A stretch of DNA of 64,000 bases. Origin: a phage. The notes under the pieces were generated by a model. That model was given only the letters and a program-made list of their open reading frames with translations, did not search any database and was not told where the DNA came from. This document shows, in pieces, positions 3,087-30,166 of the stretch; the first letter of the stretch is position 1; each line of letters begins with the position of its first letter. The position numbers and the translations under genes were made by a program. The stretch lies in the sequence record PZ386978.1; one strand, written 5' to 3'.

Positions 3087-3586
3087 TGGCTGAAGTTATC
3101 TCTATTTCAAATGCTACACGAGTGCATTCGTATAGAGGTGTTCTTATTATCACTGACAAATTATCTGTAGAGGCTGGCTCAAGGGTCAGCCTTTCAGGTT
3201 ACGTAAGTGACGGTGGAACCTCTGACGTTTTCACTATTTGTAGGTTACTTGATGCTCCAATGAGTGGAAAACCGTTTATTTCAGGAAATTGTAGTGAAAT
3301 TGTTAAAATTCCATTTGACAGTTCATGCCTTTTGGGTGTAAAGTTATATAACTGCGAGAATAAACGTATCAATGTTAATAGCATTGAAGCCGCTTTCATT
3401 ACCCTTGACACTGCATTTCAATCTCCAATGACAGTTAATAAAGAAACAAACAGACTTGAATACATTTTTTCACAAAATGATTACAAAGTACTTGTCAAAG
3501 GCAAAGTATATGATATGATTGTAAATGTGGTAGATGAATCTGGTAACCATTCAACAGTCCTTAAACAAAAAGTAAGGTTTAATTAA
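3086..3586 (+). CDS. Hypothetical head-module protein
   Basis: 166 aa ORF, start overlaps portal stop; no recognisable motif. Confidence 0.5.
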   Translation: MAEVISISNATRVHSYRGVLIITDKLSVEAGSRVSLSGYVSDGGTSDVFTICRLLDAPMSGKPFISGNCSEIVKIPFDSSCLLGVKLYNCENKRINVNSIEAAFITLDTAFQSPMTVNKETNRLEYIFSQNDYKVLVKGKVYDMIVNVVDESGNHSTVLKQKVRFN

Positions 3587-3918
3587 TGGGAACATTAACT
3601 ATTGATGGTAAGAACAAAATCCTCGCCACGCTAACCCCAACGACTATTATTTTACACAATGTAGACCCAACGGCAGACCCTACAGCAAATAAGGTTACTC
3701 AGCCAGTGGCTATTTATTTTTCTGAACCGGATAATGGCTTAATTGCCTCAGAAGACACAGTTAACATTACTGTTCCAGCTTCTGCAACGGTATCACACTA
3801 TAGCTTGTGGGATGCTAACGATAAATGCGTGGCAACTGGTGCTCTTAGCAAACCTCAATTCTTTGCTGAAGAAGGTATCTATGTTATCTCTTCAGTCTCT
3901 GTAGATTTAAACAAATAG
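3586..3918 (+). CDS. Hypothetical head-module protein
   Basis: 110 aa ORF, start overlaps the stop of the previous ORF; no motif. Confidence 0.5.
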   Translation: MGTLTIDGKNKILATLTPTTIILHNVDPTADPTANKVTQPVAIYFSEPDNGLIASEDTVNITVPASATVSHYSLWDANDKCVATGALSKPQFFAEEGIYVISSVSVDLNK

Positions 3919-19276: not shown

Positions 19277-20443
19277 ATGGCAGTAGGTGAAATTCAAATT
19301 AGTGCCTTGCCTCAAGCAGCCTTACCAATTGACCTTAGTGATATCTTCCATCTTAAGCAGGGTATTGAGGATAAGAGATGTACTCTTGAGCAATTACTTG
19401 CTCCACACTCAAGCCTAAGAAATAACCCCCACGGTGTTACTAAAACACAAATTGGTTTAGATAACGTTATCAATGCTCTTCAGTTAGTTGCTGCAAATAA
19501 TTTATCAGACATTACTAATGTTGATGAGGCAAGAGCAAATCTACAGATTATGTCTTCAGAAGAGGTTAATAGCCTTGTCCAACAGCATATTAATGATAAG
19601 AGTAATCCACACAATACAACTAAAGCACAGGTTGGTTTAAGTAATGTTCAGAACTGGACAACATCTAATCTTTATAATGAAGATGCAGATAAGTACGCTA
19701 CAGCAAGAGCAGTAAATAACTTGTACAAGGCTGTTCAGGCTTCTTATCCAGTAGGTACTATCCATCTCTCTATGAATCCTGCAAACCCTTCTACATATTT
19801 AATTTGTGGGGGTACTTGGGAGTTAGTTTCAAGAGGAAGAGCACTTGTAGGTTATGATAGTGATTCTAGGCCAGTTGGTAGTAACTTTGGCTCAAGTAGT
19901 GTTAGCTTATCTAGTAACAACCTACCATCACATAGTCATTCAATCTACCTAACTGGTGGTGGACATACTCATGGGGCTACTATTACTATCGATGGCTTTG
20001 ATTACGGCAATAAGAGCACAAACAGTTTCGATTATGGAACAAAGACCACTAATAGCACTGGTGCTCACACCCACTCAGTGAGCGGTTCAACAAATACCAC
20101 AGGTAATCACACACATACTGTAGGTGGTCGTTACGGGGGTGACTCTATTGGTGGTAAACAACGTGTTCAGGTCTCAGGGACTGCTCAGGTTTCCAGTGTA
20201 GCTGGTGACCACTCACACACTATTAGCGGTTCAACAAATACCACAGGTAATCACCAACACACTGTTGCAATTGGTGCTCACACGCATACTGTTGCAATTG
20301 GTGCTCATACCCATAAAGGCACAGTAACCTTGCAGTCATCTGAGCATACTCACTCAGGTACTACAGGTACTACAGGTGCTGGTCAAGCATTCAGCGTTGA
20401 ACAACCATCCTTTGTGGTTTATGTATGGCAAAGAACCGCTTAA
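19277..20443 (+). CDS. Tail fibre protein (short) with tail-collar-like domain and HxH repeat tip
   Basis: Collar-like segment YLICGGTWE...NLPSHSHS, then repeated HTH/HSH/HQH motifs; C-terminus ...AFSVEQPSFVVYVWQRTA paralogous to the next gene. Confidence 0.75.
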   Translation: MAVGEIQISALPQAALPIDLSDIFHLKQGIEDKRCTLEQLLAPHSSLRNNPHGVTKTQIGLDNVINALQLVAANNLSDITNVDEARANLQIMSSEEVNSLVQQHINDKSNPHNTTKAQVGLSNVQNWTTSNLYNEDADKYATARAVNNLYKAVQASYPVGTIHLSMNPANPSTYLICGGTWELVSRGRALVGYDSDSRPVGSNFGSSSVSLSSNNLPSHSHSIYLTGGGHTHGATITIDGFDYGNKSTNSFDYGTKTTNSTGAHTHSVSGSTNTTGNHTHTVGGRYGGDSIGGKQRVQVSGTAQVSSVAGDHSHTISGSTNTTGNHQHTVAIGAHTHTVAIGAHTHKGTVTLQSSEHTHSGTTGTTGAGQAFSVEQPSFVVYVWQRTA

Positions 20444-25755: not shown

Positions 25756-26115
25756 TTATGGGAACAGACACTTAATGTCATCATTTTTGAAAACAAAACT
25801 TGTGTAGTTGTGACCATCAACATCCAACCAAACAGCCTGAACATCTACACCATCAAGGTTGTGGTAAAGCTCTTTGATGAAGTGGTCTTTCACAATCTGA
25901 CTACTAGTTGTTTCCAGTTTGATGTTCGAGATTGCTGAACCTACAGCCATGTAGCCCATGACACGTTTCTTCTCAGTATGCTTAATCTTACCATCTTTGT
26001 AAGCCATAATGAGATTGGAGAGAATCTTCACACCATAATACTTTTCAAGGTGAGTGGGTACGCCATAAAAGCCTAATGCGAAGTTTTCAGAGTGGATAAT
26101 GTTTTCACGTTTCAT
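25756..26115 (-). CDS. Hypothetical protein
   Basis: 119 aa ORF; no motif. Confidence 0.5.
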   Translation of the reverse strand: MKRENIIHSENFALGFYGVPTHLEKYYGVKILSNLIMAYKDGKIKHTEKKRVMGYMAVGSAISNIKLETTSSQIVKDHFIKELYHNLDGVDVQAVWLDVDGHNYTSFVFKNDDIKCLFP

Positions 26116-26116
26116 A

Positions 26117-26446
26117 TTAATCTGCCAACCTTAAATTGAAATTAACACCAAATTTTTCACATACTCCCAACATATACTCAAGGGAAACATTCCCAGTGAG
26201 GTGGATTATGTTGGATACACGAGCCTGAGAGATACCGCAAATTTTAGCAACTTGCTCTTGAGAAAGACCTCTGGATTTAATCTCTCTCTTAAAACGATGT
26301 GAAACGAAGTCTCTCATTTCGTCTACATCCATTGGACAAATATAACTCTCCATTTCAGCCTCTCTGTCAGCCTCCCAATCATCTTGTGGGGCATAAGGGT
26401 CAAAAGCTTCATTCATCTTTCTTCTTCCGTTTGCGTGAAGTATCAA
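26117..26446 (-). CDS. HTH (XRE/Cro-like) DNA-binding protein
   Basis: 109 aa; C-terminal LSQEQVAKICGISQARVSNII helix-turn-helix-like segment. Confidence 0.6.
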   Translation of the reverse strand: MILHANGRRKMNEAFDPYAPQDDWEADREAEMESYICPMDVDEMRDFVSHRFKREIKSRGLSQEQVAKICGISQARVSNIIHLTGNVSLEYMLGVCEKFGVNFNLRLAD

Positions 26447-26621
26447 TCAACGAATCTATGTTTGTAGCCCTAACCTTTTCACGTTCATCGTTAAGATAAT
26501 CATCGAGAGCCTTTTCAATCTGTGAATCATCTTGACAGATAACTGTAAAGACTGTAAAGCCGTCTGTATCATCAATTATCTTACCATAACCGCTTCTGGG
26601 ATGTAACTTTTTAAGAGCCAT
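26409..26621 (-). CDS. Small hypothetical protein (upstream partner of the HTH protein)
   Basis: 70 aa ORF whose 3' end overlaps the start of the HTH gene by 38 nt; lysine-rich C-terminus. Confidence 0.45.
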   Translation of the reverse strand: MALKKLHPRSGYGKIIDDTDGFTVFTVICQDDSQIEKALDDYLNDEREKVRATNIDSLIDTSRKRKKKDE

Positions 26622-26622
26622 A

Positions 26623-27006
26623 TCAAATACCTGTGCAGCTTCTGTTTTCTAAGAAATACTCAACACCATACATAGCTTTTTGCATCAAATCTTCTTTAAA
26701 CTGGATACGGTGGTTGAGCATAGCCTGTACATCAATATCATCATGGTGTTTCTCTTTAATATTTGCAGATTGCAGGAAATACTCTGCAAGAACACGATAC
26801 TGATAGTCAGTCACCTTATCAGTCATCTCTGTCAAAGACTCTTCAGAGATTGGTTTAAGTAACTCACCATTAGCCAAAGCAATCCCTTTTACAATCTGGC
26901 AAGTATCTTCTGGAACACCTGATAAGTCCACATTTGGAAGTTCTGTTGCATTGACTGGTAAATTCATTGCCATAACCATTGCAGCAGCTAATAAAATCTT
27001 TTTCAT
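26623..27006 (-). CDS. Secreted/periplasmic protein of unknown function
   Basis: 127 aa with signal-peptide-like N-terminus MKKILLAAAMVMAMNLPVNA. Confidence 0.55.
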   Translation of the reverse strand: MKKILLAAAMVMAMNLPVNATELPNVDLSGVPEDTCQIVKGIALANGELLKPISEESLTEMTDKVTDYQYRVLAEYFLQSANIKEKHHDDIDVQAMLNHRIQFKEDLMQKAMYGVEYFLENRSCTGI

Positions 27007-27073
27007 AATGACCTCAAAGTTATATTAAATTTTGTATTACATTGGGTATAAAAATAAGCTATAACACCTGACT

Positions 27074-27079
27074 TGTCAA
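27074..27079 (-). promoter_or_regulatory. Candidate -35 hexamer (TTGACA on the minus strand) for the 26623..27006 gene
   Basis: TTGACA read on the minus strand about 70 bp upstream of the start; the best -10 candidate (TATTTT) is weak. Confidence 0.3.
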
Positions 27080-27097
27080 CAGATTTTATAGCTTATT

Positions 27098-27125
27098 TGG
27101 CAGATTTTTTATAAGGCTACTGCCA
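27098..27125. other. Module A1 stem-loop: TGGCAG / CTGCCA around a 16-nt A/T-rich loop
   Basis: Inverted repeat read directly; the stem covaries with the region-B copy (TGGTAG/CTACCA) while the loop is conserved. Confidence 0.7.
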
Positions 27126-27130
27126 TCCTT

Positions 27131-27220
27131 CCATACCAAACCGTTCCCAACCCAACCCTACAGCACCGAGCCAAACCCTACCGAACCGTGCCTAACCTGA
27201 CCTAGCCGTACCTTACCAAA
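27131..27220. repeat. Pentamer-periodic array A1: 18 consecutive CCNNN units
   Basis: ccata ccaaa ccgtt cccaa cccaa cccta cagca ccgag ccaaa cccta ccgaa ccgtg cctaa cctga cctag ccgta cctta ccaaa; strict 5-bp register; C-rich plus strand, GG-rich minus strand. Confidence 0.9.
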
Positions 27221-27259
27221 CATCGCTTAAAAACCCTCTTAGAAGACGCTTAAGTGATG
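27221..27259. other. H1 hairpin with conserved loop box ACCCTCTTAGAAGAC
   Basis: 10-bp stem CATCGCTTAA / TTAAGTGATG with one G-T (G-U) position; 19-nt loop; same element recurs at 28759-28797. Confidence 0.7.
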
Positions 27260-27287
27260 TAATCGAATTTTAATGTAGCTTCGATTA
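27260..27287. other. Module A2 stem-loop: TAATCGAA / TTCGATTA around loop TTTTAATGTAGC
   Basis: 8-bp inverted repeat; loop sequence shared with the 27398-27423 stem-loop although the stems differ. Confidence 0.7.
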
Positions 27288-27290
27288 ACT

Positions 27291-27350
27291 ACCCATACCT
27301 CACCTTACTTAACCGTACCGCACAGAACCACACCAAACCTAACACCACTT
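27291..27350. repeat. Pentamer-periodic array A2: 12 NACCN units
   Basis: accca tacct cacct tactt aaccg taccg cacag aacca cacca aacct aacac cactt. Confidence 0.85.
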
Positions 27351-27397
27351 CTCATCACCTTATTAAAAACTCTGTTTAAAGACCTTTTAAAAAGATG

Positions 27398-27423
27398 AGT
27401 CTCATTTTAATGTAGATGAGACT
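27398..27423. other. Module A3 stem-loop: AGTCTCAT / ATGAGACT around loop TTTAATGTAG
   Basis: 8-bp inverted repeat with the same loop motif as 27260-27287. Confidence 0.7.
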
Positions 27424-27425
27424 AG

Positions 27426-27480
27426 CTACCCATACCTTACCTAGCCAAACCTCACCTAACCATACCAAACCCCACTCCAC
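27426..27480. repeat. Pentamer-periodic array A3: 11 CNNAC units
   Basis: ctacc catac cttac ctagc caaac ctcac ctaac catac caaac cccac tccac; followed by a CCCTCTTAAAGAC box. Confidence 0.85.
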
Positions 27481-27517
27481 CTCATTAAAAGACCCTCTTA
27501 AAGACCTTTTAAAAAGG

Positions 27518-27533
27518 AGCCTCCGAAGAGGCT
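27518..27533 (-). terminator. Minus-strand intrinsic terminator with UUCG tetraloop after the 27545..27985 gene
   Basis: Minus strand reads AGCCTC-TTCG-GAGGCT followed by CTTTTTAAAA. Confidence 0.6.
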
Positions 27534-27544
27534 GCCTAGTCAAA

Positions 27545-27985
27545 TTAGAAAGGTTTTCTGCGTTGTTTGTTAATGTTAGCTTTCATAGCAGCTAAATGGT
27601 TTTGCTGTTCAATCAGTCGTGAACGTTCTTGATGACTAAGTGCCATAGTGTTCACATTCTCAATTGCTTGAGTGGCTTGTTTTAAAGCACGACCAATCTT
27701 ACCAGACATTTTACGTTTTGCAATAGTTGCTTGATGCTTAGGTTCAACCACACGATAACCAACACCCATTGAAGCAACCAGATAAATCTTCTCTTCTTTA
27801 AGAAGCTTCTCAATAAACTTCTCAAGCCGGTTTAGACGTGTAAGTGCATAAGCCTTCATTTCATCTTCGTACTTAACAATGTCGCCTTGATAAGTTGGCT
27901 TAACAATACCTAAGAAGGTATCCATCTCAGAATGTGATACAGTGTCACCGTAACTAAACTTTGCTGCTAATGCTTTTGTATTCAT
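27545..27985 (-). CDS. Hypothetical protein (array-flanked cassette, gene 2)
   Basis: 146 aa ORF; basic C-terminus; no recognisable motif. Confidence 0.55.
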   Translation of the reverse strand: MNTKALAAKFSYGDTVSHSEMDTFLGIVKPTYQGDIVKYEDEMKAYALTRLNRLEKFIEKLLKEEKIYLVASMGVGYRVVEPKHQATIAKRKMSGKIGRALKQATQAIENVNTMALSHQERSRLIEQQNHLAAMKANINKQRRKPF

Positions 27986-27987
27986 AA

Positions 27988-28593
<606 letters not shown>

Positions 28594-28650
28594 TTAGTTG
28601 ATTGTTAAGTTGTTTGTAAAGAACCCTCAACAGAAGACTCTTTAGAAACT

Positions 28651-28678
28651 TGGTAGATTTTTAACGTGGCTACTACCA
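28651..28678. other. Module B stem-loop: TGGTAG / CTACCA around a 16-nt loop
   Basis: Compensatory variant of the 27098-27125 stem with a near-identical loop (ATTTTTAACGTGGCTA). Confidence 0.7.
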
Positions 28679-28680
28679 TC

Positions 28681-28760
28681 CACCCATACCGCGCCCGACC
28701 CTACATTACCAGACCATACAAAGCCATACCCAACCAAACACTACCGCACCATACCGAACA
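28681..28760. repeat. Pentamer-periodic array B: 16 NNNCC/NNACA units
   Basis: caccc atacc gcgcc cgacc ctaca ttacc agacc ataca aagcc atacc caacc aaaca ctacc gcacc atacc gaaca. Confidence 0.9.
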
Positions 28761-28797
28761 TCACTTAAAAACCCTCTTAGAAGACTCTTAAGTGATG
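28759..28797. other. HB hairpin, second copy of the CCCTCTTAGAAGAC-box hairpin
   Basis: Perfect 10-bp stem CATCACTTAA / TTAAGTGATG with the same loop box as H1. Confidence 0.7.
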
Positions 28798-28827
28798 CTG
28801 GTGAGTACCCGTTGGTTTATGCTGCTC

Positions 28828-28855
28828 AGTATACTCACCAAATTTTCTATGTCAA
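28828..28855 (-). promoter_or_regulatory. Sigma70-like promoter candidate on the minus strand (TTGACA-16-TATACT)
   Basis: Read on the minus strand just downstream of the ligase stop; would place array B and HB in a ~230-nt leader of the 200-aa gene. Confidence 0.4.
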
Positions 28856-28862
28856 CAACTTT

Positions 28863-29963
28863 TTATTCGTAGTCTCGAATAACTAACCCAACAGGGAACT
28901 GTAAAGAACCCTTACGAGTCATCTTCTGGAACTGAACCGTTAAAGGCTTCCCGATAAACTCATCAGGATGCTCAGCAAGATACTGCTTCTTCTCATGAGT
29001 AGTCTTCCATGAGACATCTACAAAGACGTTAGGAAGAGTCTCTACAACGAACTTACCATGACCACGTTTATCAGTCTTTACACCAGTCACTTTAAACTCT
29101 TCAGTGTGCATCTTCTTGTGCTTAATCAAGAAGTATGAACGGTGACAACACTCATAGAAGGAGTCTTCAGAGATTGAACGGTACATTGCACCTTCAAACT
29201 TAGCTTCAACCCACTTATCATGAGCTTCATCAAACTCTTCCCAAGAATTTACACGACGAGACTTAACAGGAACAACTCTACAGCCATCTCTAAAGTCATT
29301 CAATGGTGAAGTCTCAATAATATCTCTACGCTCAGGCCAAGTTTTTGAATTGTCACAGATATCATACCAGTAGAACTTAAGAAGGTGGCGGTCTGGATTG
29401 TCAGCATTCTTAATCATAGACACAATATCTTCTAAGTCCCAACCATGAGCATAAATCTCACCATCAAAGTCTTCGACTTGTGGATGCAATTTAAGCAACA
29501 AAAGCAAATCTGGGATTAGTTCTGCTGGGACGTTGTAAACAGTATTCTCACGAGAATAAGCCGTGAAACTAACTGAATCAGCATTTCTTGAAATCCTACA
29601 ACGTACACCATCCAGTTTCGGTTGAGCATCAGCAGGAAATTTCAAATACTTTGCATGACTTACCTTCGCAGCATCGTGAGCAAGCTGTACACCTACCTTT
29701 TCAGCATTCTGTGCAGACTCTTTTGTGTAAGCATAACCTTTACGGTCAACTTGCTTTTTATACTTAGCAGAAACTTCAAAGAGAGCTTGCTGTTCAGCGT
29801 TACGCTCATTCTTTTTACCGATGTTTTTAGGTTCTGCTGTATACTCTTCAAACATCATCTTGCCATTTTCTTTGCCATACGTGGTAACAACTTTGTCACC
29901 TACAGCAACGCATGACCAGACGTTAAAAGAGCCGTCTTTATTTTGTTTGTATAGAATTGTCAT
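28863..29963 (-). CDS. ATP-dependent DNA ligase
   Basis: 366 aa; adenylation motif I KLDGVR (PKLDGVRCRI). Confidence 0.85.
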   Translation of the reverse strand: MTILYKQNKDGSFNVWSCVAVGDKVVTTYGKENGKMMFEEYTAEPKNIGKKNERNAEQQALFEVSAKYKKQVDRKGYAYTKESAQNAEKVGVQLAHDAAKVSHAKYLKFPADAQPKLDGVRCRISRNADSVSFTAYSRENTVYNVPAELIPDLLLLLKLHPQVEDFDGEIYAHGWDLEDIVSMIKNADNPDRHLLKFYWYDICDNSKTWPERRDIIETSPLNDFRDGCRVVPVKSRRVNSWEEFDEAHDKWVEAKFEGAMYRSISEDSFYECCHRSYFLIKHKKMHTEEFKVTGVKTDKRGHGKFVVETLPNVFVDVSWKTTHEKKQYLAEHPDEFIGKPLTVQFQKMTRKGSLQFPVGLVIRDYE

Positions 29964-30166
29964 TTTCTCTTACCACCAATTTCCACGTCAATAACTTGAA
30001 CATCACCAGCAACATCAAACTTATGAATGATGCTTTCCACAGTGTAAGTCCAACCCTCGATGCGAACCAATTCACCTTCTCGTGGGACGATTGGATTACG
30101 TTGAGCTACGGTTGTAGTGGAGTGAACAACATCATAACAGTAGATATAGTTTACTAGAACTTGCAT
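29960..30166 (-). CDS. Hypothetical small protein
   Basis: 68 aa ORF; stop overlaps ligase start. Confidence 0.4.
   Translation of the reverse strand: MQVLVNYIYCYDVVHSTTTVAQRNPIVPREGELVRIEGWTYTVESIIHKFDVAGDVQVIDVEIGGKRK

Follow-up and report, generated by a model that had tools for sequence, protein, structure and literature searches.

The 64,000-nucleotide stretch of DNA analyzed here (sequence record PZ386978.1; hereafter, the window) came from a Felix O1-like myovirus and matched 257 phage records at 80 to 99% identity, nearly all of them above 90%. Positions 27098-27540 lie among genes that are all on the minus strand, between the intrinsic terminator that belongs to open reading frame (ORF) 27545-27985 on one side and the sigma-70-type promoter serving ORF 26623-27006 on the other. 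As a sequence-only reading of this DNA had noted, they hold no ORF of 60 amino acids (aa) or more; the longest were 55 and 59 aa. That reading also described three tandem, strictly 5-nt-periodic modules here, and a fixed-phase dinucleotide scan bore this out: CC on the plus strand (GG on the minus strand) recurred in a 5-nt phase at only four places in the 64 kb, three of them inside 27098-27540. The fourth (~28666-28760) belongs to a further copy of the module, at 28652-28797 and upstream of the adjacent gene pair, that had been overlooked. We put the probability that 27098-27540 is the vrRNA2-4 array of a type II (SUSP1-clade) Viral Interference Programmable Repeat (VIPR) locus in a Felix O1-like phage at about 95%.

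VIPR has been described in two preprints as the combination of Vipr, an early-branching RAMP, with ~100-nt vrRNAs that each consist of 9 to 16 YNNGG repeats and an invariant 3' tail, which is a pseudoknot in the SUSP1 clade (bioRxiv 10.64898/2026.04.26.720920, 10.64898/2026.04.26.720927). According to the same two preprints, Vipr assembles into a right-handed filament in which each repeat takes up one protomer; the GGY is sequestered and the NN pairs with double-stranded DNA, every third target base being skipped; an R-loop triplex is formed and transcription is repressed, with no protospacer-adjacent motif (PAM) required. In SUSP1, ~100-nt RNAs were reported to copurify with Vipr, transcription of the target was repressed, and reprogramming of the NN positions changed which DNA was silenced. 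One vrRNA lies upstream and three lie downstream of vipr-vap1 in that genome, vap1 being a VIPR accessory gene for a predicted DNA-binding protein, and of the 20 SUSP1-clade vrRNAs for which a natural target could be identified, 18 converge on a satellite phage found in Escherichia coli genomes. The authors of the system proposed VIPR as an ancestor of CRISPR RAMPs (bioRxiv 10.64898/2026.04.26.720920, 10.64898/2026.04.26.720927). The sequence-only reading had recognized no described phage element in these modules, a statement overtaken by the VIPR preprints of April-June 2026 and by the Vipr structure in PDB. The element belongs to the archetypal type II VIPR clade, and for this reason it is already known and not new.

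The protein encoded at 27991-28575 (minus strand) was identical to PDB 36pp_D, "SUSP1 Vipr protein," at 190/195 positions (E 1.5e-127), and a profile of the window Vipr homologues run against PDB sequences recovered 36pp_D at E 7e-80. Residues H17, K33, R39, E71, M72, K82, G87, K88, R138, C173, D177, W178, and R179, which the structure preprint names as RNA/DNA contacts, were all identical to those of 36pp_D. From this identity, these contact residues, and the published description of VIPR, we assign 27098-27540 as the downstream vrRNA2-4 array of such a locus. An AlphaFold2 (AF2) model of the window Vipr (pLDDT 95.4) had Csm3 and type VII Cas7 RAMPs as its closest PDB folds. The Vipr family comprised more than 500 members, with a consensus ending in a glycine-rich loop; no domain was found for it in Pfam.

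On the minus strand, the locus runs in the order promoter, vrRNA1, vipr, vap1, terminator, and vrRNA2-4 (Table 1), with one array preceding and three following vipr-vap1, as published for SUSP1. The modules had previously been read on the plus strand, which was not sustained: the functional strand is the minus strand, as for all local genes. Because of this, the true order of the parts is the reverse of the stem-loop, array, and box given before, and each module reads, on the minus strand, as a spacer box, (GGYNN)n, and a 3' pseudoknot tail. The candidate vap1 (27545-27985) belongs to phrog_5926, a PHROG family of unknown function, and no relative of it was found in Pfam or PDB. In two annotated relatives, the region was blank except for one generic repeat_region, and an Rfam scan of 26000-30000 at E values of up to 10 returned only noise, with no meaningful match to any covariance model.

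The guide code was read directly from the NN dinucleotides of 70 unique guides, which were scanned against 10 satellite loci at a threshold of at least an 80% match. With one target base skipped between dinucleotides, 47/70 guides reached this threshold, compared with 2/70 shuffled guides; with skips of 0, 2, or 3 bases, the count was 1/70 in each case, compared with 2/70 shuffled. Within one 40-kb locus (L141), 18/18 guide matches fell inside a 12-kb satellite. Such target information in the NN positions, present at a 1-nt skip only, is hard to reconcile with a TRAP-like leader, in which a ring- or filament-forming protein would bind GGU triplets solely to autoregulate the adjacent genes, with no guiding. 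Triplets with 2-nt spacers do look like TRAP sites, and vrRNA1 lies within the 5' leader of vipr-vap1; however, the other three arrays lie past the operon terminator instead of in the leader, and the protein bound has the fold of a Cas7-like RAMP and not that of TRAP. The sites also departed from those of a TRAP ring, which comprise 9 to 11 GAG/UAG triplets with 2- to 3-nt spacers, by having a GGY triplet, 9 to 19 copies per tract, and a RAMP-fold partner, and we regard a TRAP-like leader as very improbable. Other candidates dropped after the identification of Vipr and the 1-nt-skip match were a CsrA, Shine-Dalgarno, or tRNA-CCA sponge, primase sites, a BREX-site (GGTAAG) decoy, and a centromere-like protein array.

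The four guides of the window were scanned separately against 16 satellite variants, with 500 shuffles each. The best match was 28/30 for vrRNA1 (in L152 and L153), 18/20 for vrRNA2 (in L148 and L157), and 28/32 for vrRNA4 (in L149, with its two 5' units dropped; 28/36 untrimmed), and none of these was reached by any shuffle (0/500 each); the best match of vrRNA3, 18/26 in L156, was reached by 324/500. The predicted targets lie at 9302-9345 in L152, 7978-8006 in L148, and 8074-8120 in L149. All nine variable units of vrRNA2 (9/9) matched perfectly, at a site that covers both the ribosome-binding site (GGAGG) and the start codon (ATG) of a satellite gene encoding 128 aa. For the targets of vrRNA1, vrRNA2, and vrRNA4, the skipped base coincided with codon position 3, in agreement with the preprint, and the three targets, in different satellite alleles, fell within ~130 bp where two small satellite genes meet. 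The targeted genes had no significant match in Pfam or PHROG, with only a sub-threshold hit to HTH_28. Within the window itself no self-targets were found, guide matches there being at most 0.70. These matches suggest that the phage silences one particular junction in a satellite found in about 10% of complete E. coli genomes. That the targeted ~130-bp junction may be a weak point of the satellite is a tentative suggestion, to which we give somewhat under even odds.

The repeats were compared across 18 IMG/VR relatives and two GenBank relatives, with statistics pooled over 21 related phages (884 units in 70 unique tracts). Arrays were found in every relative examined, at the same two sites and on the gene-sense strand only, with one to three modules per site. 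In the pentamer, the first position (G1) was G in 78% of units, the second (G2) in 96.5%, and the third a pyrimidine (Y3) in 98.5%, whereas N4 and N5 carried ~0.08 bits each; because G was so much less frequent at G1 than at G2, G1 seems partly dispensable. Tracts held 9 to 19 units. Those inside 27098-27540 held 10, 13, and 18, close to the 11 to 18 pentamers previously claimed per module; the 18 units of vrRNA4 slightly exceed the published range of 9 to 16, and the other window tracts have 10, 13, and 15. The spacers of the arrays were hypervariable, with indels of whole 5-nt units (e.g., CAGGT x3 versus x4 between relatives), whereas the flanking proteins were 99 to 100% identical. As a separate observation, TG or AG replaced GG in 5/13 units of vrRNA3 (27295-27359), and the box belonging to this vrRNA was degenerate.

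Each vrRNA ends in a hairpin plus a pseudoknot, with compensatory changes across relatives in both stems. The stem-loops with differing stems and similar loops that had been picked out in the sequence were present, at 27098-27132, 27260-27294, and 27398-27431, and the proposal that a conserved loop with covarying stems marks a selected RNA structure was upheld, the structure being the 3' pseudoknot tail; the loop looked conserved because part of it is a pseudoknot strand. The hairpin of internal tails covaried between AGTCTCA/TGAGACT (32 sequences) and AATCGRA/TYCGATT (16 sequences), and the pseudoknot GTAG/CTAC joined the last repeats to the loop. In 12 of the 16 AATCGRA/TYCGATT hairpins, there was a G.U pair that exists on the sense strand only; the remaining 4 were fully Watson-Crick there. 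Terminal tails had a covarying pseudoknot, GTGG/CCAC (21) versus AAGG/CCTT (20), and a hairpin alternating between GGTAG/CTACC and GGCAG/CTGCC. The first of the earlier hypotheses, a family of structured noncoding RNAs, had been right in kind, these being vrRNAs with pseudoknot tails.

An association between such arrays and Vipr was also recovered without reference to protein identity. When IMG/VR was scanned blindly for the DNA pattern (GGTNN)x6+GGT, at least 120 stretches were returned, and among the matches listed there were at least 64 loci with degenerate (GGTNN)n arrays and 56 simple repeats. Again among the matches listed, a family hidden Markov model found a Vipr homologue in 37/64 degenerate-array loci versus 3/56 simple-repeat loci, on the strand of the array in 37/37 cases and at a median gap of 150 nt. 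In one of these contigs (L023), the arrays directly followed a 211-aa gene whose C terminus was alignable to window ORF 27988-28590.

This obligate same-strand linkage to a RAMP protein in unrelated phages is left unexplained if the arrays are a replication origin, at which a promoter-driven, G-rich RNA would stay on its C-rich template as an R-loop or G-quadruplex and prime DNA synthesis. An origin would fit the G-rich sense strand, the nearby replication genes such as ligase, and the strong promoter directly upstream of the first array (vrRNA1), and GGN3 repeats are in principle able to fold into two-tetrad quadruplexes; it offers no account, however, of the 98.5% pyrimidine after GG and the exact 5-nt period, of near-random NN that match satellite DNA under one skip rule, or of the covarying pseudoknot tails, and we give it almost no credence. 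An equally slight chance attaches to neutral pentanucleotide minisatellite debris, functionless and produced by slippage. The unit-sized indels between relatives and the variation from one to three modules per site are what slippage might leave, yet GGY was kept at 96 to 98% with NN free, in every relative the arrays kept to one strand and were bordered by conserved, structured tails, they were linked to vipr in distant phages, and their guides matched a specific competitor. A Rho-utilization site or anti-Shine-Dalgarno sponge formed by a C-rich plus-strand transcript can be set aside with the same near certainty: the plus strand is indeed C rich and G poor, but no plus-strand promoter-like site faces into the arrays, the G.U pairs of the tail hairpins exist on minus-strand RNA only, and all else points to the minus strand. 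The earlier hypothesis that had grouped G-quadruplex, Rho-utilization, and anti-Shine-Dalgarno roles was not supported, as it left the pyrimidine after GG, the strict period, and the information in NN unexplained.

By analogy with SUSP1, Vipr would polymerize along each window vrRNA, one protomer per GGYNN repeat, and would sequester each GGY while presenting the NN dinucleotides. These would pair with the double-stranded DNA of the satellite, skipping every third base, and the resulting R-loop triplex would block transcription. From the guide matches, we infer that the phage would use the array in this way to silence the satellite that parasitizes it. The earlier idea of phased sites for a phage protein was sound insofar as the preprints place one Vipr protomer on each 5-nt repeat; its specifics did not hold, as the protein in question is a RAMP, not the primase-helicase, and binds RNA, not origin DNA.

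Several points weigh against the assignment to VIPR as set out above. The best target of vrRNA3 was at background level in the 16 satellite variants with three 5' trims, and its 10-unit pattern had no exact match in IMG/VR; because its first G is degenerate in 5/13 units, this guide may be decaying or may be aimed at something unsampled. The match of vrRNA4 reached 80% only with its two 5'-most units removed, a trim made post hoc. Expression of the vrRNAs, formation of the ribonucleoprotein, and silencing are carried over from SUSP1, whose Vipr shares 97% identity with that of the window, and the mechanism comes from two preprints not yet peer reviewed, although a PDB entry exists (bioRxiv 10.64898/2026.04.26.720920, 10.64898/2026.04.26.720927). 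Furthermore, vrRNA2-4 lie past a terminator, which leaves their transcription and cutting to size outside this account. The spacer box, finally, is left unexplained in the accessible parts of the preprints.

In comparison with the type II VIPR of SUSP1, the locus shares a 97% identical Vipr, GGY/NN pentamers, the 3' pseudoknot tail, the 1 + 3 layout of vrRNAs, the 1-nt-skip code, and an E. coli satellite as the class of target. It differs in the NN sequences of its guides, and because of this, the exact target sites differ from those of SUSP1; here, moreover, the targets of three guides, in different satellite alleles, all fall at a single gene junction, and vrRNA3, whose repeats are degenerate, is an orphan. 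Class 1 CRISPR effectors (Cas7/Csm3) likewise polymerize a RAMP fold with a thumb and G-loop on a guide RNA and show periodic base flipping. Their period is 6 nt with one base flipped per strand, whereas VIPR has a 5-nt period in which three bases of the guide are sequestered and a single target base is skipped; its guide is noncontiguous, and it has no repeat-spacer array, adaptation genes, or PAM. The window locus bore this out: its repeated unit is 5 nt long (2 nt variable), compared with direct repeats of ~23 to 55 nt, set apart by unique spacers of similar length, in CRISPR arrays, and its sole cas-like gene is a single RAMP, with no adaptation genes.

Two further systems resemble the array in outline. 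In Bacillus trp attenuation, TRAP is a protein oligomer that binds RNA triplets with 2 to 3 free nucleotides between them, at a period of ~5 nt; in contrast to VIPR, it forms a closed 11-mer ring of unrelated fold on GAG/UAG triplets, and its spacers are uninformative, whereas those of VIPR are the guide. Type III toxin-antitoxin ToxI/ToxN also places an array of noncoding RNA units beside the gene for the binding protein, in a promoter-array-hairpin-gene layout, but its identical 36-nt repeats inhibit a toxin and guide nothing to nucleic acid, unlike VIPR guides. VIPR is a minimal form of RNA-guided DNA recognition, with one ~20-kDa protein, one RNA of less than 100 nt, and a noncontiguous code. 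Spotting its guide arrays in raw sequence aids annotation, as none of the public records inspected annotates them, and in practical terms what is gained is a decoded list of targets, which predicts the hosts that will show phage-satellite interference.

Table 1. Parts of the VIPR locus and its edges, in minus-strand order
Feature	Position	Strand	Remarks
Sigma-70-type promoter TTGACA-16-TATACT for vrRNA1, vipr, and vap1	28828..28855	-	11/12 consensus matches; annotated promoter in phage AYO145A
Box hairpin 5' of vrRNA1, CATCACTTAA / loop GAGTCTTCTAAGAGGGTTT / TTAAGTGATG	28759..28797	-	
vrRNA1 repeat tract (guide), 15 GGYNN units	28686..28760	-	
vrRNA1 3' tail: hairpin GGTAG/CTACC and pseudoknot GTGG/CCAC	28652..28685	-	
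Degenerate box hairpin GTTTCTAAAGA...TCTTTACAAAC, just 5' of the vipr ribosome-binding site	28612..28649	-	Overlaps weak promoter-like site
vipr, 195 aa, ATG at 28575 (ORF list: GTG at 28590)	27988..28575	-	190/195 to PDB 36pp_D
Candidate vap1 (VIPR accessory protein), 146 aa	27545..27985	-	Immediately downstream of vipr, as in SUSP1
Intrinsic terminator after vap1, GGCAGCCTC-TTCG-GAGGCTCC + TTTTT	27511..27536	-	
Box 5' of vrRNA2, TTAAAAG / GTCTTTAAGAGGGT / CTTTTAA	27485..27512	-	
vrRNA2 repeat tract, 10 GGYNN units	27432..27481	-	
vrRNA2 3' tail: hairpin AGTCTCAT/ATGAGACT, pseudoknot GTAG/CTAC	27398..27431	-	
Degenerate box 5' of vrRNA3	27363..27390	-	
vrRNA3 repeat tract, 13 units, first G degenerate in 5	27295..27359	-	Orphan guide
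vrRNA3 3' tail: hairpin TAATCGAA/TTCGATTA, pseudoknot GTAG/CTAC	27260..27294	-	
Box hairpin 5' of vrRNA4	27221..27259	-	
vrRNA4 repeat tract, 18 units	27133..27222	-	Target match in the 16 3'-most units
vrRNA4 3' tail, terminal type: hairpin GGCAG/CTGCC, pseudoknot AAGG/CCTT	27098..27132	-	
Sigma-70-type promoter of the next gene (26623..27006)	27051..27079	-	Downstream edge of VIPR locus

The spacer box, CCCTCTTA, occurred in the 64 kb only at 27234, 27493, and 28772, with 0 occurrences expected by chance; a degenerate 22-nt pattern of it had 3 matches versus 0.00 expected and was likewise confined to the VIPR locus. The sequence-only reading had placed a box in each of its three modules, and this was exact in two of them, the middle one carrying a degenerate version (AACTCTGTTTAAAGAC on the plus strand). 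Read on the sense strand, the box is GTCTTYTAAGAGGGTYTTTTAA, which can also be taken as two GGTCTTT(T)AA direct repeats. Three different A/T-rich stems close it: TTAAAAG/CTTTTAA, CATCACTTAA/TTAAGTGATG, and, before vipr, GTTTCTAAAGA/TCTTTACAAAC. A box lies 5' of each phage vrRNA and, in degenerate form, of vipr, with none after the last vrRNA; the satellite-borne vrRNA that was inspected (L141) had no box. Among relatives, the center of the box tolerated substitutions and a 20-nt insertion. The insertion, of ~20 nt and of the form AAATTATATTCGA(A/T)AGAGTATCTCAT, was seen between the box halves in L004 (3620-3660) and in L016 and L017 (3610-3650), and because some relatives carry it there, the center is not strictly constrained.

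Judging from the published length of ~100 nt, the box would lie outside the mature vrRNA. It might mark a boundary or a processing site, or act as an operator, so that a single transcript could be divided into separate guides; the processing or boundary role is our own suggestion. That the box may constitute a separate element of vrRNA biogenesis is likewise conceivable, though we would sooner bet against it than for it. A sigma-70 promoter in the box was considered and rejected, as a consensus scan made no call and the best -10 candidates lacked either the A of position 2 or the T of position 6. The restriction of the box to the VIPR locus in the 64 kb led us to reject a general phage promoter motif as well.

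The satellite came to light when BLAST comparison of the locus with complete E. coli genomes returned short vrRNA-like stretches in 63 chromosomes, where they coincided with no annotated feature. In L141 (9900-21900), the satellite is a ~12-kb island within a DUF72 gene, and members of its family were present in 568/5,426 complete E. coli genomes, about 10%. The family encodes a serine recombinase, baseplate and tape-measure proteins, and small ORFs, sometimes with HNH, Dam, or AP2, and uses two insertion sites (L141 and L143-L157): the DUF72 gene (between yecD and yecN) or the interval between tonB and yciI. Satellite copies were often interrupted by insertion sequence (IS) elements. A single vrRNA was carried by 4/17 satellite loci (L141, e.g., at 19880-20090; L142; L143; and L147), and satellite-borne vrRNAs are mentioned in the preprint (bioRxiv 10.64898/2026.04.26.720920 / 10.64898/2026.04.26.720927). 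The L141 copy had a tail identical to the phage terminal type and was served by a TTGACG-17-TATAAT promoter and an intrinsic terminator of its own. No Vipr homologue was found in these four loci by hmmsearch at E values of up to 1, and a satellite-borne vrRNA would have to depend on the Vipr of the helper phage.

Beyond the loci considered above, many unrelated IMG/VR contigs contained degenerate (GGTNN)n arrays (e.g., L140 at 3396-3841, L055, L098, L114, and L124). Some IMG/VR arrays consisted of 6 to 7 abutting units, each ending in GGTAAGGC, with no tail hairpin. A 189-kb contig (L027-L030) held over 10 arrays, distributed among several intergenic sites, and the pieces of it that were retrieved encoded no Vipr homologue; in L023 (6100-6500) the arrays lay in the 3' untranslated region of a distant Vipr homologue, ahead of a bidirectional terminator. 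Within the window, an 8-bp inverted repeat, GGTGAGTA...TACTCACC, at 28800-28850 (minus strand) overlapped both the -10 element of the vipr-locus promoter and the ~30 nt that follow this promoter, and it was kept in relatives. An HTH_3/Cro-C1-type regulator (Pfam E 3e-9) was encoded at 26117-26446 (minus strand), two genes downstream of the VIPR locus.

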